Source of the DNA: Microcystis aeruginosa NIES-843
Lineage (GTDB): Bacteria > Cyanobacteriota > Cyanobacteriia > Cyanobacteriales > Microcystaceae
Assembly: GCF_000010625.1 (NCBI RefSeq)
Contig: NC_010296.1
Span: 3,150,001 to 3,182,000 of the forward strand
DNA: 32,000 nucleotides
Reading direction: 5' to 3'
Shown here: positions 948 through 30,640 of the stretch, in pieces
Layout: each line of letters starts with the position of its first letter
Numbering within the stretch: the first letter of the stretch is position 1
The notes under the pieces: model-generated
Database searches by the model: none
Told to the model about the DNA's origin: nothing
The model's input: only the letters and a program-made list of their open reading frames with translations
Made by a program: the position numbers and the translations under genes

Positions 948-1134
948 GGCTCTTCGGTTTGTGTTATGTAATAGACGGGAGTCATAAGGGATGAAAATCT
1001 TACAGAGAAAGACATTTTGCGATTTTTGTTAATCGTTTTTGATCTAGAACGAACTAATCAATTAAGTCTTTTGCCAGATAAAGATTTAGCCGATTTATGC
1101 CACCCGATCAAACCATACCAAGTAACGAAGAACC
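948..1134. mobile_element. MITE, copy 1 of a 187-188 bp family (second copy at 19683-19870)
   Basis: Hand alignment to 19683-19870 runs along the full length at roughly 80 percent identity. Terminal inverted repeats are GGCTCTTCGGT and ACGAAGAACC. A direct repeat TGTTTTT flanks it (941-947 and 1135-1141). No coding capacity. Confidence 0.7.
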
Positions 1135-1164
1135 TGTTTTTTGTACTAAATTTTTATCAATACT

Positions 1165-2157
1165 ATGTCATTCCAGCAATCAAACATATCTTCCGCCCAA
1201 GAAAAAGAAATCAGGGAACGCATTGATGCCGAGCGGAATAAACCTCTGGTTGTAGTCGTAATGGGACAAACTGGAGTCGGTAAGTCTTCCCTTATCAACG
1301 CCTTGTTTGGAACAAAGCTCAAGACCAATGACGTACAGCCAGAAACAAAGTCCCCAGAGAAGCATATTGAAAAAGGTTCTGATCACTCTGAGTTATGGTT
1401 CTGGGATATGCCTGGAATTGGGGAATCTTCTTCTGCTGATAGTGGATACTTGAATGACTATCGCCAAAAAATTCTGGAGGCAGATGTTGCTTTATGGCTT
1501 TGTCATGCAGACAGTCGCTCAGTAACGTTTGATGTTGAAGCGATACATAAAATTCTTGAGGGTTTAACAGATGGCGAGAAATCTCTGATTCTTAGTAAAC
1601 TCACTTTTGTTCTTAGTAAGGCTGATTTGATCACACCAGAGCCTTGGATTTTATATCGCTCAGGCAATGAAGTTGTATTTGATACAACTGAAAAAACTGA
1701 AAAATTACTGAATGCAAAAGCTGCATATTTCAAAGAAGCATTGCTAACACCGCATAGTAAAAATTTCGTTTCCAAAACATTTCATGATGGAACATTTCAG
1801 CTACGATTGTCACATTTAACTTATGACAAGAATTTTACCTATTATTCGGGAATAATGACTGTATCACATCTTAGAAAGTTACAAGAAGAGTATCCAAATT
1901 ATTCTGATGTATTTAAGAGACTCTATCACAACTCAGAAGTAATCTACTGCTCTTCTCGCTTCAAATATAATCTTGCAAAACTAATGCAAGTGATCGTTGA
2001 TAAGATTGGAGGCGGGGTTAGTATTCGGTTTCGGAAATTTATATCCGAAAATTCGATGAATCGGGTTTCTTGGGACAAGGCACGAACCTTTTCAAACTTA
2101 GTCGTCTTTGATTCAATTAAAGATGAAATAACTTTTGACTTATCAAAAGTCAAATAG
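1165..2157 (+). CDS. P-loop GTPase, COG3596 / YfjP-YeeP-YkfA-like (MMR_HSR1-type G domain)
   Basis: G1 is GQTGVGKSS, G3 is DMPGIGES and G4 is SKAD. The spacing and the WLCHADSR segment resemble the E. coli prophage GTPases YfjP/YeeP as I remember them. The C-terminal ~150 aa carry no recognisable motif. Confidence 0.8.
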   Translation: MSFQQSNISSAQEKEIRERIDAERNKPLVVVVMGQTGVGKSSLINALFGTKLKTNDVQPETKSPEKHIEKGSDHSELWFWDMPGIGESSSADSGYLNDYRQKILEADVALWLCHADSRSVTFDVEAIHKILEGLTDGEKSLILSKLTFVLSKADLITPEPWILYRSGNEVVFDTTEKTEKLLNAKAAYFKEALLTPHSKNFVSKTFHDGTFQLRLSHLTYDKNFTYYSGIMTVSHLRKLQEEYPNYSDVFKRLYHNSEVIYCSSRFKYNLAKLMQVIVDKIGGGVSIRFRKFISENSMNRVSWDKARTFSNLVVFDSIKDEITFDLSKVK

Positions 2158-2197
2158 TTACAAAAGTCACACTTACAAGACAATAGGAGTAAATTCA

Positions 2198-2389
2198 GTG
2201 GATAAGGAAGAAATTAAGCGTCGAATTAATCGTCGAATTGACAATGATGATCAGTATGCAGCTAATATATCAGCAGCATTGGATGCTGGAGATGAAGCGT
2301 GGTTATTGACATTAATTATAGAAGTAATTGGCGTAATTATTGAGATAGGAAGTTCTATTTTTAATTGGATTAAGCGTCAGTTTAGTTAA
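2198..2389 (+). CDS. small protein with hydrophobic/amphipathic C-terminal helix (63 aa from GTG 2198; 84 aa if ATG 2135)
   Basis: AGGAG at 2185-2189 lies 8 nt upstream of GTG 2198, in frame with track ORF 2135-2389. Charged N-terminus (VDKEEIKRRINRRIDNDD), C-terminus WLLTLIIEVIGVIIEIGSSIFNWI. Tightly linked to the GTPase gene. Confidence 0.45.
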   Translation: MDKEEIKRRINRRIDNDDQYAANISAALDAGDEAWLLTLIIEVIGVIIEIGSSIFNWIKRQFS

Positions 2390-2390
2390 T

Positions 2391-2457
2391 TGCGATCGCT
2401 TTTCTGATCGGGTGCATTATACTTTGTTAATGCACCTTATTTATTATTGTGTCTAAT
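2391..2457 (+). repeat. TA-island boundary repeat, copy A (short form, perfect hairpin, flipped loop)
   Basis: GCGATCGCTTTTCTGATCG, then GGTGCATTA-tactttgt-TAATGCACC (2411-2436), then TTATTTATTATTGTGTCTAAT. Matches copies B-F. Confidence 0.75.
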
Positions 2458-2459
2458 CT

Positions 2460-2795
2460 TTACAAAAACTCAATCTTTTTATACATATATTGAGGTTCTA
2501 AACATTCCCAAATTAAGACTAAATCACTGATAATTTTTCCAATTGGCTGACGTTGTTGGCGAGTGTAAATAATGCCACAATGTTCAATACCTGTAGAGGC
2601 CAAACTAAGAAAATCATCATCAAAAGTAAAAATGACTCGTTGTTGGGACAAAGCATAAGCTAGTTGTCTTTCATCAGATGCACCAATTAGACCCTCTTCT
2701 GGGGATGTTGTGACATCAACTCCCCGCATTCTCAAGCCGTTTGCAATAGCATTACTAACACTTTCATCCAGATGAAATTTAATCTTGACTGGCAT
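2460..2795 (-). CDS. DUF5615-family PIN-like putative toxin
   Basis: MPVKIKFHLDESV...VIFTFDDDF... matches the DUF5615 pattern and is paired with an upstream DUF433 gene. Likely start is ATG 2795; the track ORF extends to 2819. Confidence 0.65.
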   Translation of the reverse strand: MPVKIKFHLDESVSNAIANGLRMRGVDVTTSPEEGLIGASDERQLAYALSQQRVIFTFDDDFLSLASTGIEHCGIIYTRQQRQPIGKIISDLVLIWECLEPQYMYKKIEFL

Positions 2796-3102
2796 TTTCA
2801 CCCTGTAATATTTTCTCAATTAAAGATGGTTTGTTTCCTTGTAGTTGTTTAGCAAAAGTTTCTCCTGCTTCAATTTGTCGTCTAATTTCTTCTCGATTGT
2901 CATGGTAATAGGTCAAGGCCGCATAAACATCTGCTAGGGTAATAGTAGGATGGTGATAAATAATTTCATCTGGTGACATTCCCATTCTTTCATGCCAAAT
3001 TACAATATCTTGAACTTTAATTCGATGTCCAGCAATACGAGGTTTTCCGCCACAGATACCAGAAGTGATTTCAATATGTTGTGAGATAACTAAAGATGAC
3101 AT
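2779..3102 (-). CDS. DUF433-family putative antitoxin
   Basis: The CGGKPRIAGHRIKVQDIV motif is typical of DUF433. Overlaps the downstream DUF5615 gene. Confidence 0.8.
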   Translation of the reverse strand: MSSLVISQHIEITSGICGGKPRIAGHRIKVQDIVIWHERMGMSPDEIIYHHPTITLADVYAALTYYHDNREEIRRQIEAGETFAKQLQGNKPSLIEKILQGENASQD

Positions 3103-3169
3103 AATTACTTGCCAATAAGATCAATCAATCCTTGTTATTATACCATTTTTTCCCAGTAAGGCAACATCA

Positions 3170-3340
3170 GTGCGATCTCGAAGATATTCGCAAAGCAGCA
3201 CGCTGATTTTTTTAGGGTGCATTAACAAATTATAATGCGCCTTATTTGTTGTCTATTGATGAAGTGATCCAAAGACATTAATTCGAGGGATTGAGGTAAG
3301 GGCAGTTTGTTGGGTTGATTTTGCGTTAAAATTAAGTTAG
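3170..3340 (+). repeat. TA-island boundary repeat, copy B (long form)
   Basis: Hairpin GGTGCATTA-acaaatta-TAATGCGCC at 3216-3241. About 125 bp align to copy D at roughly 88 percent identity by hand. The left arm GTGCGATCTCGAAG...AGCAGCACGCT matches copy C. TAAAAT box at 3327-3332. Confidence 0.75.
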
Positions 3341-3354
3341 ATATGTCTTAATTG

Positions 3355-3612
3355 ATGAAACTTAGCAAGACAATGAATACTTCGACCACTTTTCAAGAAA
3401 TTGCCGCCGAAATACAATTATTTGATAATATTGAACAAAAAGAACAATTTATTTTTGTGGTGGGTGCTTTAGTTTCTCGCATCATCAGTCTTCATAAAGC
3501 CGCAGAAATCATGGAAATGGATACAGAAATGTTCTTGAAAATTTTAGAATTAATGGGAATCGATTTTTCTTATCTTACTACAGAAGACATAGATAGAGAA
3601 AAAAAATGGTAA
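3355..3612 (+). CDS. UPF0175-family putative antitoxin
   Basis: Small protein with a C-terminal HTH-like segment (AAEIMEMDTEMFLKILELMGI). Overlaps the following DUF3368 gene in the typical UPF0175/DUF3368 pairing. The track starts at TTG 3352; ATG is at 3355. Confidence 0.65.
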   Translation: MKLSKTMNTSTTFQEIAAEIQLFDNIEQKEQFIFVVGALVSRIISLHKAAEIMEMDTEMFLKILELMGIDFSYLTTEDIDREKKW

Positions 3613-4100
3613 TCTCTATGAAAATTGTTTTCAATTCTTCCCCTTTAATCTTTTTTTCTCAGTTAGGATTTTTAGAAAAATCCCTAGATTCTAATGATAA
3701 TTTTTATTTGCCTGCAACCGTACAACAAGAAATTAATGCCAAACAAGATCAATCTTCAGAGACTCTTAATAAGCTGATCAATCAACAGAAATTAATTATC
3801 CTAAATATTAAATTAATCTCTCTAGCAAATAGTTTAAATGAACGTTTAGGGAAAGGTGAATCTGATGCCATTACTTTAGGAATAGAATTACAAACTGATT
3901 ATATCATCCTTGATGACTTTGCAGCAAGAAAAGAAGCACTACACTTAGGTTTAAATGCTAAAGGAACTTTAGCGATTATTCGTAAACTTCTCAAAGAAGG
4001 AAAGATAGAAATTGAAAATTTGGAGAGTTTTTATCAAAGACTTAGAGAAATTAACTTTAGAGTCAAGCGTGAGATATTTGAGAGCATTTTTGGAGACTGA
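3606..4100 (+). CDS. DUF3368-family PIN-like putative toxin
   Basis: The N-terminal FNSSPLIFFSQLG and the D-containing LDDFAARKEA segment fit the DUF3368 PIN-like family. Alternative start at ATG 3618. Confidence 0.65.
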   Translation: MVISMKIVFNSSPLIFFSQLGFLEKSLDSNDNFYLPATVQQEINAKQDQSSETLNKLINQQKLIILNIKLISLANSLNERLGKGESDAITLGIELQTDYIILDDFAARKEALHLGLNAKGTLAIIRKLLKEGKIEIENLESFYQRLREINFRVKREIFESIFGD

Positions 4101-4190
4101 GTGTGATACTGAAGGCACTGCGTAGCAGCACGCTTATTTTATCGGGTGCATTAACAAAGCATAATGCGCCTTATTTCTTGTTATTGATGG
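4101..4190 (+). repeat. TA-island boundary repeat, copy C (short form)
   Basis: Hairpin GGTGCATTA-acaaagca-TAATGCGCC at 4145-4170. The following TTATTTCTTGTTATTGATGG is the 3' end (reverse strand) of CDS 4171-4350. Confidence 0.75.
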
Positions 4191-4350
4191 ATTCCCACCA
4201 TAACTTTAAATCACTTTCATTAATCTTTTTTTGAAGATATTCAATCTGATCTGAATAACTGAGATTTTTCATGTCTTCAGCCATTTTTTCTTGACTGGTT
4301 TGTTTAAAAGCTAAACAGTCAAAACTTTTTTTAATTGTCGTTGGCTTCAT
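4171..4350 (-). CDS. small protein (59 aa), likely partner of the upstream PIN gene
   Basis: ORF MKPTTIKKSFDCLAFKQTSQEKMAEDMKNLSYSDQIEYL...WWESINNKK. Its start overlaps the end of the PIN reading frame. I recall this protein type downstream of PIN genes, with low certainty. Confidence 0.4.
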   Translation of the reverse strand: MKPTTIKKSFDCLAFKQTSQEKMAEDMKNLSYSDQIEYLQKKINESDLKLWWESINNKK

Positions 4351-4783
4351 CAATTGTTACCTCTAAAGGAGAAATAATAGTCAAAATCCCGTAGCCATTG
4401 AGTAAATTAATTTGATTATAGCCTTTCATTTTATCTAGGCGCACAATATGTTTAAAATTCCATGATATGATTGCATCCGCTACATGATTAGCATCATTAA
4501 TAGACTTTGATGTAACAACTCATTCATTGATATAAGCATCCCTTAACTGTAAAACTTCAGGTGTTATCTTAACTACTTCAATAACTCTCTGCGGAATCGA
4601 TAATAAAATATCTTTAACCGATTGGGGAGCATTAATTAATTCGCTAACAATGATATCACTCATTAACAAAATAAACTTTTCTTGCTTAATGGCTTCCATC
4701 AATTGATTGGACTCTAAGGAAAATTCATCATCTAAACAGCCTGCAATGACTGATGTATCGATATAAACTCTAAGTTTTTTCAT
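4340..4783 (-). pseudogene. PIN-domain (VapC-like) toxin gene, disrupted
   Basis: N-terminus MKKLRVYIDTSVIAGCLDDEF (track ORF 4520-4783) stops at TGA 4522-4520. Read-through gives VVTSKSINDANHVADAIISWNFKHIV, the conserved D/H and WNFKH part of this PIN family. A 1-nt frame change near 4438-4441 is then needed to read LDKMKGYNQINLLNGYGILTIISPLEVTIDEANDN. Confidence 0.6.
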
Positions 4784-4826
4784 AAATGATAGAAAAAGTT
4801 TTCTGATCTTAGTTTAACATCAAAAG

Positions 4827-4940
4827 TGCGATCGCCGCTCTTTTAGAGTGGATTAAGGTAGTGTAATGCAGCTTATTGATAATAGAATTTTTGAAACCTA
4901 AAAGTCGAGGGCTTTAGTTTTAAGATTTATCAAGCTTAAA
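4827..4940 (+). repeat. TA-island boundary repeat, copy E (degenerate long form)
   Basis: GTGCGATCGCC...AGTGGATTAAGGTAGTGTAATGCAGCTTATTGATAATAG...AAAGTCGAGGGCTTTAG aligns loosely to copies B and D. The hairpin arms have decayed. Confidence 0.45.
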
Positions 4941-4991
4941 GTACAGTTAACATTAAGCTATAATAATCATTAGTCAACAACAGTTATTACT

Positions 4992-5240
4992 ATGTCTTTT
5001 GCAGCTAAATATCGAGATCGGATTGTGATTAACCCAGACATTCGCAGTGGCAAACCTTGCATTGTCAATACTCGTATTGCAGTAGCAGATATTTTTGATT
5101 ATCTAGGAGGAGGGATGACTATTGAAGAAATATTAGATGATTTCCCCGATCTTACCTTAGAAGATATACAAGCCTGTTTTGCATTTGCCGCCGAGCGGGA
5201 TCGTCGTTTAATGGTTATTCCCTATGAAACTGCTATTTGA
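4992..5240 (+). CDS. DUF433-family putative antitoxin
   Basis: RSGKPCIVNTRIAVADIFDYL motif. Overlaps the downstream DUF5615 gene. Confidence 0.8.
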   Translation: MSFAAKYRDRIVINPDIRSGKPCIVNTRIAVADIFDYLGGGMTIEEILDDFPDLTLEDIQACFAFAAERDRRLMVIPYETAI

Positions 5241-5556
5241 CGAAAACTTATCACCTAAACTACCTCTGTTACTGGTATCACATTTTCCCGATAGCGCTCA
5301 TGTTAGAGATTGTAGCCTAAAAGGGTTTCCCGATCAAAGGATTTGGGAATATGCGCGTATCAATGGATTTATAATTGTCTCGAAAGATGCTGATTTTTAT
5401 CAACGGAGTTTGTTGTATGGCCAACCTCCAAAGTTCATCTGGTTGAGGATTGGAAATTGTACCACTTATCATCTAATCAGTCTTATTTTAAAACATAAAC
5501 AAGCTATTAAGAGATTTAGCGATAATTCTACCGAGTCTGTTTTAGTAATTGCATAA
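5224..5556 (+). CDS. DUF5615-family PIN-like putative toxin
   Basis: MKLLFDENLSPKL...IIVSKDADF pattern typical of DUF5615. Paired with DUF433. Confidence 0.7.
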   Translation: MKLLFDENLSPKLPLLLVSHFPDSAHVRDCSLKGFPDQRIWEYARINGFIIVSKDADFYQRSLLYGQPPKFIWLRIGNCTTYHLISLILKHKQAIKRFSDNSTESVLVIA

Positions 5557-5569
5557 TCATATATTATCC

Positions 5570-5714
5570 TCAGCGATCGCTTTTCTGATCGGGTGCATTA
5601 ACAAAGTATAATGTGCCTTATTTATTGTCTATTGATGAAATGACCCAAAGACGTTAATTTAAAAGATTGAGGTAAGGCAGTTTGTTGGGTTGGTTTTGTG
5701 TTAAAATTAAGCTG
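5570..5714 (+). repeat. TA-island boundary repeat, copy D (long form)
   Basis: GCGATCGCTTTTCTGATCG plus hairpin GGTGCATTA-acaaagta-TAATGTGCC (5592-5617). The remainder aligns to copy B. TAAAAT box at 5702-5707. Confidence 0.75.
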
Positions 5715-5759
5715 GAGTAAATTCTAATCCCCGATTAAAATTTCAACGGAACAATCACC

Positions 5760-6023
5760 ATGAACTTTTATACCGTTATTCTGAGAAAAAGTGCAAATTA
5801 TTGGGTTTCATTATGTCTTGAAAATGGATTAGTTGGACAAGGAGAAACTCAGGAAAAAGCTATTGAGAAACTAAAAGAAGCGATTGAATCTTTTTGGGAG
5901 ATTTATCATGATCAAGCCAATATATATACCAGTCCTATTCCTATAGACGAACTTCATGAATTTTTAACTGTGGGAGATTCTGAAACTCCCGAAACTTACG
6001 AACTCAGAAAAGTTTATGCCTAA
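5760..6023 (+). CDS. hicB: HicB-like antitoxin (UPF0150 N-terminal domain type)
   Basis: YTVILRKSANYWVSLCLENGLVGQGETQEKAIEKLKEAI is the typical HicB N-domain pattern. Overlaps the downstream HicA-like gene. Confidence 0.7.
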   Translation: MNFYTVILRKSANYWVSLCLENGLVGQGETQEKAIEKLKEAIESFWEIYHDQANIYTSPIPIDELHEFLTVGDSETPETYELRKVYA

Positions 6024-6255
6024 AAATATTCCTTCTCTTAAACCCAAAGCACTAATCAAAATTCTTGAAAAAGGAGGCTGTCAATTTTATCGAGAAGGAA
6101 AAGGTGATCATCGTTTATATTGTAGAGTATTGTATAATCAACGTCGAATCGTTCCTATCGATATAGGTGCAAAAGAAATGTCCCCTGCTTATGTTTTACG
6201 AATTTTTAGACAATTTGGTTTTACAGATGAAGAAATAAAACATTTATTGAAATAG
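6016..6255 (+). CDS. hicA: HicA-like mRNA interferase toxin
   Basis: LKPKALIKILEKGGCQFYREGKGDHRLY fits the HicA/YcfA pattern (KxxxxIKxLxxxGxxxxRxxGSH-like). Confidence 0.7.
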   Translation: MPKNIPSLKPKALIKILEKGGCQFYREGKGDHRLYCRVLYNQRRIVPIDIGAKEMSPAYVLRIFRQFGFTDEEIKHLLK

Positions 6256-6355
6256 ATGATTGAATGCGTTTTTTTCAAACGAATAAATTATCTATTCTAG
6301 TACACTTTATCTTAATTTTATTTCCAAGAGCTAAAATAAAGTGATAGCTACTTTT

Positions 6356-6415
6356 TTAAGGTACATTAACACAAGAGTAAAACCCTCGATTGCTTGTTAT
6401 AAATTGATTTAATGA
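6356..6415 (+). repeat. TA-island boundary repeat, copy F (degenerate)
   Basis: AAGGTACATTAACACAAGAGTAAAACCCTCGATTGCTTGTTATAAATTGAT aligns loosely to GGTGCATTAACAAAGCATAATGCGCCTTATTTCTTGTTATTGAT of copy C. Confidence 0.4.
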
Positions 6416-6761
6416 TTAATTTTCACCCAGTCATCGTCGATAAATTAGCCTGCCTTAAAAACAGGTAAAGTGACTATCACCATTTTGCCTAATTTTTTCA
6501 CTCTGGTAATGAACTTTTGATTATGAAATGATCCAAATTTGAGGAGAATTTGCCATCTCAATTGTTAAGATTTCGTAACTATTCTGATTGACTGGTATCA
6601 CCTAAAATACCCATGCGGATCACAAAATTGTCCAATTGTCAACAGCTTTTGAGATGCTCTCACCCTGTAGAAAATCAAGAATATTTTTTAGGTGGAATAG
6701 GAAGATGAAATTTATCGGTAAACTAATAAATTATCATCACCTAAACCACTTTCTAGCCTAA

Positions 6762-11094: not shown

Positions 11095-11268
11095 ATCAGT
11101 TATCAGTTATCAGTAAACAGTAACCAGTGATCAGTAAACAGTAAACAGTAACCAGTGAAAAGACAGCACTGTTAATGCCTTTATCACTTAATCCTCAAAT
11201 CTGATAAATGCCTTTATCACTTAATCCTCAAATCTGATAACTGATAACTGATCACTGATAACTGATAA
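11095..11268. repeat. STRR-type heptamer repeats (CAGTNAN / CTGATAA) plus a 33-bp unit duplicated in tandem
   Basis: atcagttatcagttatcagtaaacagtaaccagtgatcagtaaacagtaaacagtaacc. Then aatgcctttatcacttaatcctcaaatctgata x2 (11175-11240). Then ctgataactgataactgatcactgataactgataag. Confidence 0.85.
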
Positions 11269-11269
11269 G

Positions 11270-11638
11270 ATGAATCCAAAATTTAAAGATATTACCGCTT
11301 GGGAACAGGCACAATTGTTAATGCAGCCGGCATTTATTCGGGTGCTGGATAATCTGCGTAAACAGTTAGAAAATTCCCTCTGGAAAGGAACTTATACAGA
11401 AATTCAAGATCCCTATCCCAGTTATCTGCTCTGTTTGACTTATCTCGATCGCTCCGTTACTGTAAATATTTGGGAACTTTGTTTTCAAGTCTGTTTTCTC
11501 GATTATCCCACCGATGAAGGAGAGAGCGTCACCATCGATACCAGTCTCCTCGACCCCACCGGTGAACTAGATTGGCAGAGTTTGGAAACGAAAACCGAGC
11601 GCATTATTAACCGATTATTCGCTAATTTACCCCAATGA
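11270..11638 (+). CDS. conserved hypothetical protein (122 aa)
   Basis: Clean ORF whose stop overlaps the next start (ATGA at 11635-11638), suggesting co-translation with the YgfZ-like gene. No motif recognised. Confidence 0.5.
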   Translation: MNPKFKDITAWEQAQLLMQPAFIRVLDNLRKQLENSLWKGTYTEIQDPYPSYLLCLTYLDRSVTVNIWELCFQVCFLDYPTDEGESVTIDTSLLDPTGELDWQSLETKTERIINRLFANLPQ

Positions 11639-12648: not shown

Positions 12649-12680
12649 ACAGTAAACAGTAATCAGTGAACAGAACGTAG

Positions 12681-12705
12681 GTTGGGTTGAAGTATGAAAC
12701 CCAAC
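12681..12705. repeat. GTTGGGTT-8nt-AACCCAAC hairpin (common cyanobacterial small repeat)
   Basis: Perfect 8-bp stem in the convergent gap between ygfZ and nadE. I recognise the sequence type as a dispersed cyanobacterial repeat. It may act as a terminator. Confidence 0.4.
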
Positions 12706-12833
12706 GCCCGCCTGGGTTAGTGATAACTCACATCTGATATAGTCATTTCAGATAATTCTGATCCACTCTAGACCGATGAAAACCTTATGAACTCTGGCAT
12801 TTATATTCTCAATCTTAATTGAAATGACTATAG

Positions 12834-12928
12834 CTGATAACTGATAACTGATAACTGATAACTGATAACTGATAACTGATAACTGATAACTGATAACTGA
12901 TAACTGATAACTGATAACTGATAACTGA
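12834..12928. repeat. perfect heptamer array CTGATAA x13 (STRR)
   Basis: Direct reading: 13 perfect units plus a partial ctga, ending 8 bp before the nadE stop codon. Confidence 0.95.
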
Positions 12929-12936
12929 AAAACCCC

Positions 12937-14595
12937 CTAACCCCAGCGACTAGCGATGGGCATTCGCCAACCAGTGCCAAAAGCGCGATCGCTAATTTTT
13001 AGACCGGGAGGGGCTTGTTTGCGCTTAAATTCGGCATTTTTAACTAATTTAATCACTTTCTGCACAATTTCAGGCTCAAAACCGGCGGCAATAATTTGTT
13101 CGGCGGATTGATGGCGATCGATTAATAGTGCTAAAATAGCATCTAAAATCTCGTAGGGAGGTAAAGAATCTTGATCCTTCTGATTGGGTTTTAATTCAGC
13201 ACTAGGAGCTTTATTAATCACATTGAGGGGAATAATTTCCCCGTGCCGATTTAACCAGCGACAGAGGGAATAAACCCTGGTTTTCGGCACATCAGCAATC
13301 ACTGCTAAACCACCATTCATATCACCGTAAAGGGTGCAATATCCCACCGCCATTTCTGATTTATTGCCAGTGGATAATAGTAAATGACCGAATTTATTAG
13401 AGAGAGCCATTAATAAATTACCGCGAATGCGTGACTGAAGATTTTCTTCGGCAATACCAAAATCAGTCCCAGCGAAAACCGGCTCTAAAAGTTGATCATA
13501 AGCGGTCATAATTTCCTGAATTGCTAACTTCTCACTTTTGATACCTAAATTATTAACTAAAGCCACTGCATCGCTAATGGAATGGTCGGAACTATAGGGA
13601 GAAGGCATCATCACAGCGAGAACATTTTCTTTACCTAATGCGTCGCTGGCAATAGCGGCAACTAAACTGGAATCAATGCCACCACTCAAGCCGAAAATTA
13701 CCCGTTTAAAACCGCATTTCTGCACATAATCTCGCACTCCTAAGACTAAGGCTCGATAAATTTCCTCATCTTCATCGACGGGTAAAGGATGAATAACTGC
13801 GGGTAACAAATCTTGATTAAACTCGATCAATTCTAGGCTAGAAGTAAATGCTTGGGCGCGATAAATCACTTCTCCTTGTCTGTTAAAAGCAACGCTGTCA
13901 CCATCAAAAATTAAATCATCATTTCCTCCCACTTGATTGACATAAACTATAGGTAAATTATATCTAGTGGCACTATGGGATAATAAAGATTCTCGCAATT
14001 TTTGCTTACCGACACTGTAGGGAGAAGCGGAAAGATTAACGATTAAATCCACTCCCAAATTAGCTAAATCAGCGATGGGATTAACTGCGTATTGACGTTG
14101 ACCCCAAAATTGTTCATCATTCCAAACATCTTCACAGATAGTTACACCGATTTTTACATTATTTTCTGTTAGTTGAAAATATTGACTTTCTTTCCCAGAA
14201 GCAAAGTAACGATCCTCATCAAAAACATCGTAGGTAGGCAATAAACGTTTAGTAAAAATTTGTTTAATTTCTTGACTTTTCAACAAAGCTATGCTATTAA
14301 ATAGCGGCTTTTCTCCCCTGACCGTTGCCGAGGGATTTTTTTCGACAAAACCGACTAAGACGGCTAACTTTTCTGGTAATTGTTGGGACAATAATTGCAA
14401 TTGTCGAGACATTTTCTCCACAAAACCCAGATTTAATAATAAGTCTCTGGGAGGATAACCACAGAGGGATAATTCCGGGGTTAAAAGTAATTCTGCTCCC
14501 TGATTAAATGCCGTTTGAGCAGCCTCTAAAATTCTTTGGGCATTTCCTTCGATATCTCCAACAATGGGATTTAATTGAGCGATAGCAATTCTCAT
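12937..14595 (-). CDS. nadE: glutamine-dependent NAD+ synthetase
   Basis: N-terminal CN-hydrolase domain (ELSLCGYP, ICEDVW). C-terminal NAD synthetase domain with SGGIDSS. 552 aa. Confidence 0.95.
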   Translation of the reverse strand: MRIAIAQLNPIVGDIEGNAQRILEAAQTAFNQGAELLLTPELSLCGYPPRDLLLNLGFVEKMSRQLQLLSQQLPEKLAVLVGFVEKNPSATVRGEKPLFNSIALLKSQEIKQIFTKRLLPTYDVFDEDRYFASGKESQYFQLTENNVKIGVTICEDVWNDEQFWGQRQYAVNPIADLANLGVDLIVNLSASPYSVGKQKLRESLLSHSATRYNLPIVYVNQVGGNDDLIFDGDSVAFNRQGEVIYRAQAFTSSLELIEFNQDLLPAVIHPLPVDEDEEIYRALVLGVRDYVQKCGFKRVIFGLSGGIDSSLVAAIASDALGKENVLAVMMPSPYSSDHSISDAVALVNNLGIKSEKLAIQEIMTAYDQLLEPVFAGTDFGIAEENLQSRIRGNLLMALSNKFGHLLLSTGNKSEMAVGYCTLYGDMNGGLAVIADVPKTRVYSLCRWLNRHGEIIPLNVINKAPSAELKPNQKDQDSLPPYEILDAILALLIDRHQSAEQIIAAGFEPEIVQKVIKLVKNAEFKRKQAPPGLKISDRAFGTGWRMPIASRWG

Positions 14596-15920: not shown

Positions 15921-16004
15921 TGAGGGATTAGTTTAAGTCTGCTCAAGCTTGGCAAAGATTAACTTCTCCCCATTATAGTTGATTTTACCAAAATAGGGCA
16001 AGAG

Positions 16005-16049
16005 GATCAGTGATCAGTAATCAGTGATCAGTAATCAGTGATCAGTGAA
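16005..16049. repeat. STRR heptamers (GATCAGT/AATCAGT)
   Basis: gatcagtgatcagtaatcagtgatcagtaatcagtgatcagtga. Confidence 0.85.
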
Positions 16050-16139
16050 GTTTTGCGACGAGTGGGCTGCTATTAACTTAACAGAAAATTCCCTAACACT
16101 TGGCCGTTCTGAATAGGGGAGATTGCGTCTAATTGCAAA

Positions 16140-16415
16140 GGGTGCATCTCACATTTGCAGAAATACCGACAATCAGCACTTATCAGTGACTCTTAAATTG
16201 GTACAAAAATATGAACAATCGCGTGTAAGCATCCCACCGAAAAGCTAATGCGCGGGGGGTTTGGGGGCGGCGCCACGCCCCCAACGGGGGGTTTGGGGGG
16301 TAGAACCCCCCAAAGGCTTGGATTGAGTGATAAAATCGGAAGTAATGCCCGATTTTAAAAGAGAGTTTCCCCGTAAAAATCCCAATTGGTAGATTGACAA
16401 AAATGAGATGCACCT
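16140..16415. mobile_element. MITE (about 276 bp) with GC-rich internal hairpins
   Basis: Termini are gGGTGCATCTCA and TGAGATGCACCt. A perfect 8-bp direct repeat ATTGCAAA flanks it (16132-16139 and 16416-16423). The interior carries GGGGGCG-gcgcca-CGCCCCC and GGGGGG-tagaa-CCCCCC hairpins. Track ORF 16183-16413 lies wholly inside. Confidence 0.7.
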
Positions 16416-16430
16416 ATTGCAAAAAGATAC

Positions 16431-17021
16431 TTATTCTTGAATAAGAGCATAATCATAATGCTCCAAAATTTCACCTAAACAGGATGAATTATCATCGTAT
16501 AAATTACCTAAGTTGTCTTCTTGCAAATGGTTTCTAACCCGATCAAAAAGCCCAACGGAATAGACACTATCATCATGACGAGAACGGTATCTAATCCCAT
16601 CTACTCCTTGGGGATGTTCCCAAATTGCCTGCCCCCAAGTCCGACAATATTCATAATCACCAGAAGAAATGCGGGCATCTATTCCTATGCGAACAAGGGC
16701 CGGCCCCGTTAAGTCGGCCAACACTAAAGTGCGATCGCTTCTAATTCTAAAAAGATTTCTATTTCTTAGGGCTGTAACGGTTACGGCTCCGTCAAATGTT
16801 CGTCCAAAACATTCAATAAAGGTACTGTACTCATCACCCACATAGAGAAGCCCATAGCCCTGATTTGGCCCATCGAAACGACCGCTACCACTGCGGTCAA
16901 AATGAAGACTAGAAAGGTGTCCGGTTTTATTTAATCTTAGCCAGGGGCCTGGGGTTTCAATGACGGGCAATTGACGCTGACTAAAATCGTCTGGTGGGAG
17001 GGGAAAAGGAGGCAAACCCAT
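16431..17021 (-). CDS. RES-domain toxin (Xre-RES / MbcT-like family)
   Basis: SGRFDGP...LLYVGDEYSTFIECF...IRYRSRHDDSVYSVGLF follows the R-E-S conserved-residue layout. The start codon overlaps the stop of the upstream antitoxin-like gene. Confidence 0.8.
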   Translation of the reverse strand: MGLPPFPLPPDDFSQRQLPVIETPGPWLRLNKTGHLSSLHFDRSGSGRFDGPNQGYGLLYVGDEYSTFIECFGRTFDGAVTVTALRNRNLFRIRSDRTLVLADLTGPALVRIGIDARISSGDYEYCRTWGQAIWEHPQGVDGIRYRSRHDDSVYSVGLFDRVRNHLQEDNLGNLYDDNSSCLGEILEHYDYALIQE

Positions 17022-18298: not shown

Positions 18299-18587
18299 AC
18301 TGTAAGAATCTCAACCAACAATTATTGCAAAGTTAAACCAACAATTATTGGAGTTAAACCAACAATTGTTGCTATCATTAAACAATAATTGTTGGTACTC
18401 CATTTCAAAATATGCTAACTAGCCCATCAATATATGATGCCCAAAAGCTGGCAAGAAACTGTGGTTTGGATATTTCCAAGCACTGTAAGAATCTCAACCA
18501 ACAAATATTGCAAAGTTAAACCAACAATTGTTGCTATCATTAAACAATAATTGTTGGTACTCCATTTCAAAATATGCGAACTAGCTC
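18299..18587. repeat. tandemly duplicated block carrying seven iteron-like AACCAACAAT(T/A)(A/G)TTG sites
   Basis: Direct sites at 18313-18327, 18336-18350, 18357-18371, 18496-18510 and 18519-18533. Inverted sites at 18383-18396 and 18545-18558. The block ACTGTAAGAATCTC...CCATTTCAAAATATGC.AACTAGC occurs twice, starting at 18299 and 18482. CAACAATTGTTG is a perfect 12-bp palindrome. Confidence 0.85.
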
Positions 18588-18599
18588 GAAAGTACAGCC

Positions 18600-19190
18600 A
18601 TGAAGACGCTCTCGTCAATGCCCCAAAACCTATCCGATGCCGAAAGGCAAGCAAGCAACTGTGGTTTGGATATACCCAAGCTACAAGCTTTGTTGGAAGA
18701 AATCGAACCCCCATCTGAAAAATACAAAATGCCCCCGTCACTATGCGATGCCCAAAAGCAGGCAAGAAACTGTGGTTTGGATATACCCAAGCTACAAGCT
18801 TTGTTGGCAGAAATCGAACTCCTATCTGAAAAATACAAAATTATTTTCTATCTGGCGGCTACAGGACTTTATTCCGCCGATGATTTGGCTGAAATGTTCA
18901 ATCATAGCCAAAAAAATCTAAACGCGGATTTCAACAAAAACCTAGGATCCCATCTTAAGGATTACCTTGAGTTAGATGAGCGGGTGGGAATTACTTCTTT
19001 AAGAAGAGTTCTCTTTAAAAAAGGCTATTTTGTTGACATTAATGACGATGAATCAGTGAGAGTTTTGCCAACACGCTACGCTGAAAATTCTCAAACAGAG
19101 CTTAATGACGATGAATCAGTGAGAGTTTTGCCAACACGCTACGCTGAAAATTCTCAAACAGAGCAGTCTTTTACTGTCAGACAAAATTAG
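18600..19190 (+). CDS. repeat-containing protein with putative HTH-like middle segment (196 aa)
   Basis: Two 37-aa N-terminal repeats (DA[EQ][RK]QA[SR]NCGLDIPKLQALL.EIE..SEKYK). The middle segment IIFYLAATGLYSADDLAEMFNHSQKNLNADFNKNLGSHLKDYL resembles the HTH-like module of the STAND fragment at 1-480. The C-terminus has a perfect 21-aa duplication. Confidence 0.6.
   Translation: MKTLSSMPQNLSDAERQASNCGLDIPKLQALLEEIEPPSEKYKMPPSLCDAQKQARNCGLDIPKLQALLAEIELLSEKYKIIFYLAATGLYSADDLAEMFNHSQKNLNADFNKNLGSHLKDYLELDERVGITSLRRVLFKKGYFVDINDDESVRVLPTRYAENSQTELNDDESVRVLPTRYAENSQTEQSFTVRQN
19039..19164 (+). repeat. perfect 63-bp tandem duplication inside CDS 18600-19190
   Basis: ttaatgacgatgaatcagtgagagttttgccaacacgctacgctgaaaattctcaaacagagc x2, with no mismatch. 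Encodes (I/L)NDDESVRVLPTRYAENSQTE twice. Confidence 0.95.
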
Positions 19191-19792
19191 TGCGGATGAG
19201 AAGACCACCAATCAAGGAGATTGATTTAAAAATGGAAAACACCATTATTAATGGGTTGTTAGCTCAACTAGACAATGAACAGAATAGCGATCGCCGTGCT
19301 GAAATCATAAGGAAATTGGGAGAATATCCTGAGCCTCAAGTTATTAAAAAACTTTGGGATTTGAGAAATAATCTCGAAAGCGAATCTGATGATTTTGTGC
19401 AGTACGAAATCAAGCTTAGTTTGCGTAAGGTAACTAATCATCCTAGTATAAATATTAATTTTTTTCTTGATAACTTAGGAGTATTCCAATCAAAAGACAA
19501 CAATTCTCAAGCTCCAAAAGTCTTAATTGACGCTGATCTGATTGAAGAGTTTTTATTACGAAATCAGACGACTCTTAACAGGGAAGCTGCTAGGGTTATG
19601 GGACTTGTTTTAGAGGGAAAAATTAATCCTTACATCGGCGAAATGGGATTAATACAAATTTGGCATAGTATGAAAAATCTTAGGCTCTTCGGTAATTGTT
19701 ATGCAATGGACGGGGGTTATAAGGGATGGAACCCTTATATAGAAAGGCATTTAGCGATTTTTGTCAATTGTTTTTTATCTAGAGCGAACTAA
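19190..19792 (+). CDS. 5' part of a MITE-split gene: HEAT-repeat-like N-terminal region; last 37 codons and stop are MITE-derived
   Basis: LLAQLDNEQNSDRRAEIIRKLGEYPEPQVIKKLWDL resembles a PBS-lyase/HEAT-like repeat. Likely start is ATG 19196 or 19232. The reading frame enters the MITE at 19683 and terminates inside it. Confidence 0.6.
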   Translation: MRMRRPPIKEIDLKMENTIINGLLAQLDNEQNSDRRAEIIRKLGEYPEPQVIKKLWDLRNNLESESDDFVQYEIKLSLRKVTNHPSININFFLDNLGVFQSKDNNSQAPKVLIDADLIEEFLLRNQTTLNREAARVMGLVLEGKINPYIGEMGLIQIWHSMKNLRLFGNCYAMDGGYKGWNPYIERHLAIFVNCFLSRAN

Positions 19793-19870
19793 TCGAATTA
19801 AGTCTCTTGCCAGATAAGGATTTAGTCGATTTATGCCCCCCTATCGAACCATACCAAGTAACGAAGAACC
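19683..19870. mobile_element. MITE, copy 2 of the 187-188 bp family, inserted inside a coding sequence
   Basis: Same TIRs as copy 1 (GGCTCTTCGGT and ACGAAGAACC). A perfect 8-bp target-site duplication AAATCTTA lies at 19675-19682 and 19871-19878. Confidence 0.85.
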
Positions 19871-21542
19871 AAATCTTAAATCTCAAGAATATGCCAATCG
19901 TTCGATCATTGAACTTCTGAGCAAGATTAACGTCGGCCAAGTTAACTTGAAAGAAATCGACCTAGAAAAATATCCCAACGTTAATTTAACAACGGCAATT
20001 CAAGTTGAGATTGCCAGAAAGTATAGCCTAGCAGGTATTATCACCATCAGAGATCGAGAATTCATTGCCAGTGGGTATCCTTTTGTGGGTTCTCCTTCCT
20101 TATTCTCACAGTTTTTAGGGAAAGATACCTCGCCAGCTTCTATCGAAAGAACTCTCAAAAATCTCGGTAAAGCTGCCATGGAACATGAAAAAGTAAAACT
20201 CAATCAGCTTTTAGAAAACGAGCCTCAACAAAACTTATTCTTTGAAGATAATCTTTTGCTTTTTCAAGGCTGGAAAATTGAGAACTTTGAAATTCTTTGT
20301 GCCAATAACAATTTAACTTCCGCGACAGTTATCCTATGTAATACAAAAACCCAAGAGCGTTACACTGAATCAGCCTTTAAAAAAGGTTCAGTAGATGCAC
20401 TTTGTACTGCTTTTAATGAGGCTCTAGCTCATTTAGTTGAGGTTAAACATATCCTTAAATCTGTCTATTTGGCCAACTTAAAAGAAGGTCAACAAGGAGA
20501 CGTAACTGTCAAGGTGGTGGTCGAGTATGATGGTAAAAAAGTGATTACCATCCACACCCACGAAAATATTCTCAAGGCTTATTTTTTCGCCTACGTCAAA
20601 GCGATGATTGCCGTTTATGCACCCGATGAATATCACCCCGATATTCATAGCACGAAAGAATTGAAATATTTGTACAAAATTGGCGAACGAGATTTTTGGG
20701 GACTGAATTTCAGCCAAGTCAATTTAATGGATACCCCAGGCAATCTTTCCGATGCAAAATTGATGGGATGTAACTTCAGTCAGGCTAATCTTTCGATGGT
20801 TAATTTAACTAATGCTGATTTAACAGGAGCCGATTTAAGTCATGCCAATTTGAGCAAAGCTGATTTAACAGGAGCCGATTTAAGTCATGCCAATTTGAGT
20901 AAAGCTAATCTAACGGGAGCTAACTTGACCGATGTTAAATTAGATGAAAATAATCTAACCATCCTTGATGGCACAATTTTGACTAACACAATTATGCCTG
21001 AAATTAACATTGAAATTAGCGGCGAATCTCGTTTAGAAAAGGTTGCTCAACTACTCAAACACATTGATCCTCAAAGTCAATCTCGAATCTTGGCTATTCA
21101 CTCCATGACAGATTGCATCTGGTGGGATAATCCTCTTGGTCAAAAATTCTGGGAAGTTAACGAAGAACTAATCAAAAGAGGGATTTCTATTCAACGAGTT
21201 TTTATTCTTCCTGAAGTTCCGACTCCAAAGCATTTACAGGTGATTCAGGAACAACTTAACTCTGGCATAGAAGTTGCTTGGATTTGTCAGGAAAAAGCCA
21301 AAGATGTTGAAGGCTATCGTTGGGATGATACCAACCTATTAATTAGCGAAAACTTATCTGTTCCCAGAAATTCTTTTACAGCGAGAAGAACTATGAATGG
21401 TCAAACAGAATCAGGTTATATTTCCTATCAAACAAGAGTTGTCGAGACAGATAAAAGTATCTTTAACGCTCTATGGGAAAAATCCGAAAAACTCTCTACT
21501 CAAGCTAATATTCAGGAACAATTAGCAAACCTGAATACCTGA
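19833..21542 (+). CDS. 3' part of the MITE-split gene: unknown domain, LeuA-dimer-like segment (tentative), pentapeptide repeats, unknown C-terminal domain
   Basis: The first 13 codons (MPPYRTIPSNEEP) are MITE sequence. Pentapeptide repeats are clear (NFSQANLSMVNLTNADLTGADLSHANLSKADLTGADLSHANLSKANLTGANLTDVKL). KKGSVDALCTAFNEAL...VTVKVVVEYDGKKVITIHTHENILKAYFFAYVKAMIAV resembles the LeuA allosteric/dimerisation domain pattern, with low certainty. Confidence 0.7.
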   Translation: MPPYRTIPSNEEPNLKSQEYANRSIIELLSKINVGQVNLKEIDLEKYPNVNLTTAIQVEIARKYSLAGIITIRDREFIASGYPFVGSPSLFSQFLGKDTSPASIERTLKNLGKAAMEHEKVKLNQLLENEPQQNLFFEDNLLLFQGWKIENFEILCANNNLTSATVILCNTKTQERYTESAFKKGSVDALCTAFNEALAHLVEVKHILKSVYLANLKEGQQGDVTVKVVVEYDGKKVITIHTHENILKAYFFAYVKAMIAVYAPDEYHPDIHSTKELKYLYKIGERDFWGLNFSQVNLMDTPGNLSDAKLMGCNFSQANLSMVNLTNADLTGADLSHANLSKADLTGADLSHANLSKANLTGANLTDVKLDENNLTILDGTILTNTIMPEINIEISGESRLEKVAQLLKHIDPQSQSRILAIHSMTDCIWWDNPLGQKFWEVNEELIKRGISIQRVFILPEVPTPKHLQVIQEQLNSGIEVAWICQEKAKDVEGYRWDDTNLLISENLSVPRNSFTARRTMNGQTESGYISYQTRVVETDKSIFNALWEKSEKLSTQANIQEQLANLNT

Positions 21543-22756: not shown

Positions 22757-23011
22757 CTACTCTGGATAGTTAGGCAGAGAATGATATTGAAAAATGCCAA
22801 ATATACTGCCGACACTGCCGACACTTAGAATACTGCCAACACTGCCAATACTGAGAATACTGCCGACACTGCCAATACTGAGCATACTGCCGATACTAAC
22901 CAGACTTAAAATGCTGCTGGCACTAGCGAGACTTAAAATACTGCCGGCACTGCCTAAACTCAAGATACAGCGATAACTAGCTTTGCTCAGATAATTAAGA
23001 CCAGAAATCAT
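22757..23011 (-). CDS. Gly/Ser/Ile/Leu-rich 9-residue-repeat peptide (84 aa), translationally coupled to the upstream RCK/channel gene
   Basis: ATG 23011-23009 overlaps the TGA 23010-23008 of the upstream gene (ATGA). The sequence encodes about seven degenerate 27-bp units (22802-22990) giving ...SLGSAGSILSLASASSILSLVSIGSMLSIGSVGSILSIGSVGSILSVGSVGSIFGIF. The opposite strand is also open across the repeat, so coding is not certain. Confidence 0.4.
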   Translation of the reverse strand: MISGLNYLSKASYRCILSLGSAGSILSLASASSILSLVSIGSMLSIGSVGSILSIGSVGSILSVGSVGSIFGIFQYHSLPNYPE

Positions 23012-30416: not shown

Positions 30417-30640
30417 AAAGGGTGTTATACTAAAGGCACTGATAACTGATAACTGGTCACTGACTATTGTGGTACTTCGCTGAAACCCTTTTCGGCGAAG
30501 TGTTTATTTTTGGCCTTTTTCTGCACGAAGGTATGATTTTTGGATCAAAGGTGTTATAGTAAAGGTACTGATAACTGATAACTGGTCACTGACTATTGTG
30601 GTACTTCGCTGGAACCTTTTTCGGCGAAGTATTTATTTAA
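30417..30640. repeat. about 95-bp segment duplicated in tandem (30417-30513 and 30547-30640)
   Basis: aaagggtgttatactaaaggcactgataactgataactggtcactgactattgtggtacttcgctgaaacccttttcggcgaagtgtttattt versus aaaggtgttatagtaaaggtactgataactgataactggtcactgactattgtggtacttcgctggaacctttttcggcgaagtatttattt. Copy 2 contains the last codons and stop of CDS 30593-30955. Confidence 0.85.
30475..30511 (+). terminator. rho-independent terminator candidate for eno
   Basis: 11-bp stem CTTCGCTGAAA / TTTCGGCGAAG (one U-G pair on the plus strand) with a CCCT loop, followed by TGTTTATTTTT. Confidence 0.6.

Follow-up and report, generated by a model that had tools for sequence, protein, structure and literature searches.

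How toxin–antitoxin (TA) pairs and small defence modules move within and between chromosomes without a mobile-element carrier is an old question, and it is raised in a tractable form by a short gene array in the cyanobacterium Microcystis aeruginosa NIES-843. The array spans positions 2390-6540 of a 32,000-nucleotide stretch of contig NC_010296.1 (positions 3,150,001 to 3,182,000 of the forward strand; hereafter the window) and consists, according to the list of open reading frames (ORFs) and to Pfam, of five two-gene modules, numbered 1 to 5, whose gaps are filled by a repeat element that we call the joint. A preliminary description of this DNA had taken the repeat either for a gene-end-plus-hairpin relic spread by recombination or for a dedicated recombination or cassette-boundary site. 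Here we describe the anatomy of the joint, its distribution, the variation that it delimits among strains and the positions at which joints have been exchanged. We give about even credence to the view that the joint is a terminator-plus-promoter module serving as portable homology for the deletion, duplication, reordering and allelic replacement of gene modules.

Joint copies and their anatomy

Copies of the joint were sought with a core pattern, GGTGCATTA-N8-TAATGCGCC-TTATTT with at most one mismatch, and with an nhmmer profile of the core that was built from the array copies and run on the 32-kb window. The pattern matched at 2411, 3216, 4145 and 5592, in every case on the plus strand, against an expectation of 0 from 100 shuffles. 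The profile recovered these copies strongly (A, 2392-2457; B, 3194-3266; C, 4124-4194; D, 5572-5643) and added copy E at 4827-4879 (E=1e-5) and copy F at 6341-6408, the latter weak (E=0.02), yet colinear across the full model and kept in all strains. Neither search gave a credible further copy in the remaining 26 kb of the window. Copies A to D are near-identical and E and F are decayed, and all of them lie on the plus strand in the gaps between modules. Six co-oriented copies in six gaps had been reported in the preliminary description, which placed them correctly but missed that the hairpin remnants of E and F have lost their folding, that the loop of A is flipped and that a seventh relic lies at about 6497-6537.

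A complete joint comprises a left arm, a hairpin with a stem of 9 pairs (extendable to 12) and a loop of 8 nt, and a TTATTT tail. The short left arm, TGCGATCGC-TTTTCTGATCG, includes the cyanobacterial highly iterated palindrome 1 (HIP1) octamer; in the long left arm of 47 nt, found in B and C, this octamer is split by about 24 nt, and the long-arm sequence is conserved between Microcystis and Crocosphaera. HIP1 (GCGATCGC) has 17 sites in the window, and for 5 of the 34 strand-specific sites a stem of 7 bp or longer begins 6-18 nt downstream, compared with 2.75% of random positions; joints A and D account for two of these five stems.

Joint A (2390-2457, plus strand) begins 1 nt past the stop codon of an 84-aa ORF and carries a short left arm with HIP1 (TGCGATCGCTTTTCTGATCG), a hairpin with a perfect stem (2411-2436) and the TTATTT tail. 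Its loop, TACTTTGT, is the reverse complement of the usual loop, and the flanks keep the common orientation. Joint B (3169-3341, plus) is a long form, in which a 47-nt left arm with a split HIP1-like box (3169-3215) and the hairpin (3216-3241) are followed by the tail and a 10-codon gene-end relic (3242-3281) and by a promoter module that extends to 3341. In joint C (4101-4190, plus) the long left arm abuts the stop codon of module 2, and the hairpin (4145-4170) is followed by a tail (4171-4190) that forms the coding 3' end of a minus-strand 60-aa ORF (4171-4353), the stop codon of which is the TTA of CCTTATTT. Joint D (5572-5716, plus) is again a long form, with a short left arm containing HIP1, a hairpin with two G.T wobbles (5592-5617) and the relic (5618-5656). 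Joint E (4827-4940, plus) is a decayed B-type copy with a HIP1 box, a hairpin remnant (4847-4872) and a diverged promoter part ahead of module 4; in strains that retain the DUF433 gene its left flank is a module-1-type upstream region. Joint F (6341-6408, plus; hairpin remnant 6360-6385) is degenerate and is located after HicA in most strains examined, and the very decayed seventh relic (about 6497-6537, plus) consists of a right-arm remnant and a gene-end relic.

The gene-end relics of B and D read LWITSSIDNK-stop and LWVISSIDNK-stop, to be compared with LWWESINNKK-stop in the live 60-aa gene at C. The link between the repeat and a gene end, first drawn from the tail of C and a decayed frame in B, applies to D as well, and the term gene-end relic is right for the middle part of both long forms. 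These two copies had been aligned by hand over about 125 bp at roughly 88% identity; in our alignment the similarity resolves into 87 nt at 89% and 41 nt at 90%, so that some 90 nt beyond the core are common to both.

The promoter module of the long forms ends in TG-N-TAAAAT, the TAAAAT -10 box lying at 3327-3332 in B and at 5702-5707 in D, the positions at which it was originally noticed. The same promoter module is common to module 2, module 5 and an extra PIN module of other strains, and in each comparison the homology ceases 2-5 nt past the box. One sequence standing ahead of three unrelated operons and ending so close to the TAAAAT box fits the earlier proposal of a portable promoter.

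The hairpin as a plus-strand structure

Joints A to D were called as plus-strand terminator-like sites by a consensus scan, which found 7 sites against 1.5 expected, and their plus-strand RNA folds at energies between -10.8 and -15.1 kcal/mol (z between -2.2 and -4.6). For B, C and D the fold of the minus strand is the poorer one, since the stem variants form G.U wobbles on the plus strand only. The variants met across strains turn U-A into U.G and G-C into G.U and again preserve pairing on the plus strand alone, and two independent compensatory changes were found, C-G to T-A and A-T to G-C (GGTGTATTA...TAATACGCC and AGTGCGTTA...TAACGCACC). In the stem alignment 92% of the cells are paired, and the two compensated pairs were reached by 18 of 500 shuffles; with the arms partly fixed by the search pattern, these statistics lend modest support to pairing on the plus strand.

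Plus-strand genes stop 21-44 nt ahead of the hairpin, and the features of an intrinsic terminator, namely a stable stem-loop and a U-rich tract downstream of a gene, are present in the sequence. On the plus strand the hairpin has the look of an intrinsic terminator. Its loop is hypervariable among strains that are otherwise 97-100% identical. The inverted loop of joint A recurs in other strains, and each flipped copy is the one met first on its array or contig, these coming from four different left contexts.

The core is confined to one array

The exact core pattern, a search in which diverged copies could be missed, was scanned over 185,579 species-representative genomes and was found in 19 stretches. 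Six Microcystis representatives carry 2-4 clustered copies each, in most of them within a single stretch. In M. ichthyoblabe, the sole complete Microcystis chromosome among the species representatives scanned, four cores lie within one 8-kb stretch and none elsewhere, and this array is located between pheT and the phosphoketolase gene. Single copies are found in Crocosphaera species (the complete C. watsonii genome has the exact core once), in 'unicellular cyanobacterium SU3' and in a Pseudanabaena metagenome-assembled genome (MAG). A scan of metagenomes added 31 stretches of the same kinds. In the viral contigs of IMG/VR the core had 0 matches, on which ground a phage attachment site was rejected. 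A dispersed repetitive extragenic palindromic (REP) sequence or MITE (a miniature inverted-repeat transposable element) was rejected for this core on account of its confinement to the array in the genome scan and of the 26 kb of window that hold no copy.

Modules are lost, added and reordered at the joints

We compared the array with contigs that carry exactly the HicA, GTPase, DUF433 or DUF3368 protein of the window (loci numbered L). Whole modules are missing from some of them. In L010, window positions 991-2445 are fused to 5573-6499 through a single repeat copy and modules 1-4 are absent, and in L006 positions 2596-4189 are fused to 5589-6537, again through one repeat copy, with modules 3-4 absent. 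Other strains have extra modules, among them a second HicBA pair and a YefM/YoeB pair. In some strains HicBA is followed by an extra PIN-gene module, preceded by an 86- or 63-aa ORF, which has at its two ends, instead of hairpins, a 26-bp stretch of the relic in direct repeat (6512-6537 of the window, duplicated to flank the module). A Septu pair, PtuA (380 aa) and PtuB (190 aa), is found at 2641-4852 of L036 and also in L033 and L047, where it sits behind a diverged, GTAG-tagged joint copy directly after pheT.

The joints connect their neighbours in several combinations: the left context p84 is followed by modules 1, 2 or 5, the 100-aa context by modules 1, 2 or 3, the end of module 1 by modules 2, 5 or 4, and the end of module 2 by modules 3, 5 or 1. 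Before TGCGATCGC, unrelated left contexts, at least 15 of them, break off at one and the same nucleotide. The four bases 5' of this sequence are mostly NNAG (TTAG, GTAG, TAAG, TCAG), as seen at 2386-2389 of the window, in L017, L019, L024, L030, L051, L055, L057, L059, L073 and L075 and in others, and sometimes the NNAG supplies the stop codon of the upstream gene. In the chromosome CP116295.1 and in L074 and L055, module 2 stands ahead of module 1, opposite to the order in the window, which implies that modules have been reordered, beyond mere deletion.

Variant arrays occur in the complete chromosomes AP019314.1, CP020664.1, CP116295.1 and NZ_CP191408.1, and the repeat does not reach the k-mer length (141) that the metagenome contig names imply; both facts make assembly chimeras unlikely. 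The array of most strains examined is flanked by pheT (with a STAND NTPase) on one side and by the phosphoketolase gene (xfp) on the other, and this slot is therefore a core hotspot; a few chromosomes show another right or left flank (alaS, DUF559 or a methylase gene). L075 and L076 contain, at about 7830 in the orientation of the hairpin, half a joint, composed of left arm, left stem, loop and TA and followed by unrelated DNA. It represents a rearrangement breakpoint inside the hairpin, located at the right end of an array that is reduced to modules 1 and 5.

In agreement with the cassette-boundary half of the preliminary proposal, the joint marks the limits of the units by which strains differ. 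The core is array-confined, as opposed to a dispersed REP or MITE, and the five cassettes, far from forming a fixed block, show repeat-delimited absence, addition and reordering.

Crossover positions follow shared identity

In recombinants between A and D (L010) the switch falls within the 29-nt identical left part of the joint, and in recombinants between A and B, C and A, and B and D it falls in the right arm or tail, the only stretch that those pairs share. At the joints of L005 and L014 the change-over comes 70-100 nt downstream of the hairpin and within the shared promoter module. We rejected a fixed crossover point, as hairpin variants show no consistent linkage to left or right contexts and crossovers occur on both sides of the loop as well as in the promoter. 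Crossovers fall in the longest stretch that two joints share, a pattern that points to homology-driven exchange or gene conversion. Positions that vary in this way and follow shared identity do not fit a recombinase with one cleavage point; the dedicated recombination site considered in the preliminary description gains no support from crossovers that are found wherever identity is longest, even 70-100 nt past the hairpin.

Pfam integrase and recombinase domains were absent from the scanned window ORFs of at least 110 aa, from the called genes of the 10 kb upstream of the array in the complete chromosome CP020664.1 (L061) and from the larger flanking ORFs scanned in L015, L017, L019, L024, L029, L030, L032 and L036; evident housekeeping neighbours in related loci were left out of the scan, which reached about 6-12 kb around the loci checked. 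Over this range the remark that no recombinase is in view stands. A reverse transcriptase gene in L029 and a DDE transposase in L001 lie near the array, and neither is conserved.

Joints and GTAG hairpins in other genera

The element also flanks TA-like pairs in Crocosphaera. In four Crocosphaera species a variable stretch downstream of chlH carries differing pairs, namely a HicB-like gene with a helix-turn-helix gene, a HEPN gene with HicAB, and a PIN gene with a 69-aa gene. Comparison of L026 with L012 revealed a stretch replaced exactly between two hairpins, one of the GGTGCATTA type and the other of a GTAG-GGTGGGCAATGCCCACC type. The latter follows the stop codon of chlH, stands again at the island's other end in L026 and is located at L012 1994-2010, L013 4967-4983, L026 188-204 and 1632-1648, and L028 1596-1612; its palindrome has been quoted as a low-affinity HetR binding consensus in Nostoc PCC 7120 (PMC7476756). 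In one Crocosphaera MAG two copies of the element bracket a DUF6883/DUF4926 pair, and in the Pseudanabaena MAG two copies bracket an uncharacterised pair.

The tetranucleotide GTAG stands directly 5' of the stem in most copies from Crocosphaera, SU3 and Pseudanabaena and in the diverged Microcystis copy after pheT. Copies A to D of the window have ATCG or TTAG instead, and the TAG there can also pair with the TTA of the tail. GTAG-GTTGGGTT...AACCCAAC is a third type of hairpin, which comes with the same HIP1 left arm and, within the array, heads the second HicBA module of other strains; it occurs once elsewhere in the window, at 12677-12705 on the plus strand, as GTAGGTTGGGTTGAAGTATGAAACCCAAC. 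GTAG-tagged palindromic repeats constitute a described REP superfamily, to which GTAG-12, -15 and -16, known from Anabaena, Nostoc and Cyanothece, belong (Di Nocera et al., 2013; PMC3733652), and Group 4 REP-associated tyrosine transposase (RAYT) genes are reported to be common in Cyanobacteria (PMC5581495). By its form the hairpin resembles a low-copy relative of the cyanobacterial GTAG-tagged REPs, GTAG-15 and -16 being compared by description only. This likeness, the terminator-like strand asymmetry and the presence in other genera had been overlooked in the earlier reading.

Proposed mechanism and alternative explanations

We propose that each joint would close the transcription unit on its left and, where the next module lies on the plus strand, would drive the expression of that module; these activities, and the enzymology of recombination, we infer from sequence features. 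Since the same 35-125 nt are present at each joint, the joints would act as portable homology, and recombination between two of them would delete, duplicate, reorder or swap whole modules. Palindromes promote RecA-independent template switching, and the likely routes would include template switching at the hairpin together with RecA-dependent exchange and allelic replacement after DNA uptake. The outcome would be a chromosomal cassette array in the core hotspot from pheT to xfp that operates without a recombinase of its own.

Several observations weigh against portable homology as the whole explanation. Some recombinant pairs have just about 16-30 nt in common, which is little for RecA to recombine efficiently. 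The left boundary at one nucleotide, mostly after NNAG, across at least 15 left contexts resembles site-directed joining. An element of 60-85 nt, left arm included, is conserved between Microcystis and Crocosphaera (and in a short form in Pseudanabaena) beside unrelated pairs, and homology-driven exchange within one locus leaves the conservation of such a unit across genera unexplained. Strict co-orientation and wobbles confined to the plus strand would also fit a single-strand hairpin substrate. The short identities, the constant 5' boundary and the cross-genus conservation keep a trans-acting enzyme that recognizes a single-strand hairpin in play.

In its most explicit form, such an explanation would make the joint a true attC-like site, whose plus-strand hairpin, left arm and GTAG-type tag are taken as single-stranded DNA (ssDNA) by a trans-encoded recombinase. 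Candidates would be a Y1 HUH transposase, either REP-associated or IS200-like, or else a tyrosine recombinase, and the enzyme would excise and reinsert units composed of genes plus one hairpin. We consider this possible but doubtful. Copies that are all co-oriented amid genes facing both directions, stem variants that pair on one strand only together with compensatory changes, modules 1 and 2 in either order and a 5' boundary fixed after NNAG in at least 15 contexts are what it would predict. Module 1, moreover, mostly keeps its own downstream hairpin variant (loop ACAAATTA), both before module 2 and before module 5. Outside Microcystis, GTAG lies directly 5' of the stem in most copies and two-gene modules are bracketed by the element in Crocosphaera and Pseudanabaena, and both GTAG-tagged REPs (PMC3733652) and Group 4 RAYTs (PMC5581495) have been reported in cyanobacteria. 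An enzyme of this kind is, however, hard to reconcile with crossovers to the left of the loop, to its right and in the promoter module, or with loops that differ between copies that have evidently recombined. The GTAG tag is lost in the window copies (ATCG or TTAG), the flanks examined contain no candidate enzyme gene, and the extra module after HicBA is bounded by the 26-bp relic repeat, not by hairpins.

Extended beyond this locus, the idea becomes an integrase-less cassette system of the Microcystaceae and at least one Pseudanabaena, a proposal that we regard as speculative. A REP-like plus-strand hairpin, with a left arm bearing HIP1, would serve there as attC, and a trans enzyme, for example a domesticated Y1 HUH transposase, would cut beside the hairpin and move 'two genes plus one hairpin' units between joints, with hotspots at pheT-xfp in Microcystis and in the 3' flank of chlH in Crocosphaera.

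It is improbable, in our judgement, that the joint is an expression module only, a terminator or insulator with a promoter, that spread by local duplication, recombination being incidental and rare and the array consisting of decaying paralogous intergenic regions. The terminator form of the hairpin and the shared promoter agree with this explanation, as do the decay of E, F and the relic at 6497-6537 and the gene-end relic held by B and D, which would have been duplicated from a pre-existing junction. It accounts poorly for the many recombinant joints, including those in complete chromosomes, for the permuted module order and the left contexts, at least 15 in number, and for the conservation of the element beside unrelated modules in other genera.

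Very improbable is a 60-90-nt unit that constitutes a small RNA gene or its 3' end, such as an RNA antitoxin or regulator ending at the hairpin: a long left arm and hairpin conserved in sequence across genera and a plus-strand-specific hairpin speak for it, but Rfam (searched at its gathering threshold for the full window and with E values of up to 10 for 2200-6700) returned only chance snoRNA-level matches, the left arm is not preceded by a conserved promoter, left arms of the short and the long type can stand in for one another, in A, C and D the unit comes straight after a plus-strand stop codon, and the RNAalifold consensus of the left arm has almost no covariation (1 of 23 predicted pairs), on which ground a structured left arm was rejected. 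Portable homology carried by a terminator-plus-promoter joint is thus the reading that we retain.

Gene modules of the array

Module 1 (2460-3102, minus strand) opens with a DUF433 gene (2779-3102), after which comes a DUF5615/PIN-like gene (2460-2819), with a promoter-like consensus site at 3164-3137. Module 2 (3352-4100, plus) combines a UPF0175 gene (3352-3612) with a DUF3368 gene (3606-4100), whose protein matches the PADLOC candidate PDC-S70. Module 3 (4171-4783, minus) is decayed and retains the 60-aa ORF (4171-4353) and a frameshifted PIN gene (4354-4783). In other strains this module has three genes, encoding DUF433 (100 aa), PIN_3 (157 aa) and a 59-aa protein. The frameshift leaves an 87-aa ORF of the PIN gene in the window, where other strains have an unbroken 157-aa PIN_3 (compare L015 3092-3565 and L001 393-1184), and the DUF433 partner, which is intact in other strains and precedes the PIN gene there, has been lost. 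Module 4 (4992-5556, plus) pairs a DUF433 gene (4992-5240) with a DUF5615 gene (5224-5556). Module 5 (5760-6255, plus) comprises an 87-aa gene in the HicB position (5760-6023) and HicA (6016-6255; PF07927); the 87-aa protein did not match HicB significantly in Pfam.

The five cassettes had initially been called unrelated. This is overstated, as modules 1 and 4 are both DUF433/DUF5615 pairs, with 36% and 28% identity between them, and module 3, with its frameshifted PIN gene and missing partner, is decayed in the window.

Other repeats in the window

A 190-nt stretch at 945-1134, upstream of a GTPase-like gene, is duplicated at 19680-19870 with 83-92% identity, the duplicate lying upstream of a pentapeptide-repeat gene (19833-21542). 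A MITE-like element of about 300 bp (16128-16427), whose core is G-rich and whose terminal inverted repeats (TIRs; TTGCAAAGGGTGCATCTCA ... TGAGATGCACCTATTGCAA) measure about 30 bp, is located directly 3' of a RES-domain gene (16431-17021) that is itself paired with a 157-aa ORF. Intergenic arrays of the heptamer CTGATAA/TAACTGA in both orientations are present at 11095-11290, 12816-12948, 15992-16063 and 30440-30470, and look like the intergenic direct repeats of TAACTGA that have been reported from cyanobacteria and Beggiatoaceae (PMC4679880). Tandem and interspersed repeats occupy 18300-19170 and 22776-22991; they include 111-nt and 63-nt units and a run rich in ACTGCC with a 9-nt period.

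Implications and comparison with known systems

The array offers a natural case in which one short, sequence-defined joint, present in several cyanobacterial genera, accompanies the loss, addition and reordering of whole modules, and the joint appears to make each module an independent expression unit through its terminator and promoter. If exchange is homology-driven, the locus illustrates how a core hotspot can be made into a self-organising cassette array by a terminator of REP-like form; should a hairpin enzyme take part, the array would belong to a new cassette-capture system parallel to integrons and would provide a dedicated route for TA and small defence modules. In either event the joint sequence is usable as a probe for the variable defence content of Microcystis bloom metagenomes. 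A literature search by sequence strings and by topic, of incomplete coverage, found no account of the element or of hairpin-punctuated TA arrays in cyanobacteria.

Among known repeats, GTAG-tagged REPs share with the joint a 26-32-nt extragenic stem-loop that lies mostly just downstream of genes and the GTAG tag 5' of the stem, the latter in Crocosphaera, SU3, Pseudanabaena and the diverged copy after pheT; two further GTAG hairpin types occur in these loci. REPs are, however, high-copy and dispersed, whereas the joint is of very low copy number, with one array per Microcystis genome. The window copies lack the tag, and the joint adds a HIP1 left arm, a relic and a promoter and delimits exchangeable gene modules. 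The Correia/NEMIS repeats of Neisseria (PMC3184786) likewise are short intergenic repeats that provide a stem-loop and promoter elements, but the joint has no TIRs beyond the hairpin and no target-site duplication, and it is not dispersed. As regards MITEs, which measure 70-400 bp and have TIRs and target-site duplications, alignments of the copies and their flanks revealed neither TIRs nor flanking duplications.

With integron arrays the locus shares one co-oriented hairpin repeat per junction, ORFs that end at or inside the repeat, cassettes whose presence, absence and order vary among strains, and TA cargo, as in sedentary chromosomal integrons. In contrast to integrons, no intI or attI was found near the array, a difference that is not decisive, as clusters of attC sites lacking integron-integrases (CALIN-type arrays) are also without intI; the modules here lie in both orientations and have a promoter that is either their own or shared, and the crossover point is not fixed. 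The attC site itself measures 57-141 bp and has R''/L''/L'/R' boxes and extrahelical bases, whereas the joint is a simple hairpin of 26-32 nt. In a test made by folding and not with an attC covariance model, a long imperfect stem is absent from the long forms of 147 nt taken as ssDNA (z between -0.9 and -2.0), and by inspection GTTRRRY is absent from the joint boundaries (attC boxes being RYYYAAC ... GTTRRRY). The folds led us to reject an attC reading of the long forms, in line with the earlier impression that the sites do not look like attC.

The pdif (Xer) modules of Acinetobacter plasmids are similarly small, often TA pairs, and bracketed by palindrome-like sites in many combinations, and no recombinase gene is linked to them, the pdif enzyme being chromosomal. 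They differ in their 28-bp XerC/XerD sites of 11-6-11 architecture, which alternate in orientation and lie on plasmids, whereas the joints are 9-8-9 with a variable spacer, co-oriented and chromosomal; the compensatory stem changes argue for base pairing rather than Xer-style recognition of the arms. The core defence hotspots of Pseudomonas aeruginosa, E. coli and Acinetobacter, which have housekeeping genes on their flanks and lack mobility genes, share a fixed core slot with strain-variable content. In the pheT-xfp slot this content includes Septu (PtuAB), a STAND NTPase, GTPases and a PDC-S70-like module, and no integrase was found there. Punctuation by one conserved hairpin joint and shuffling at the level of modules do not, so far as we can tell, form part of those hotspot descriptions. 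Taken together, these comparisons suggest an array that fails the defining features of integron and pdif arrays and yet resembles both in function, set within a core defence hotspot.

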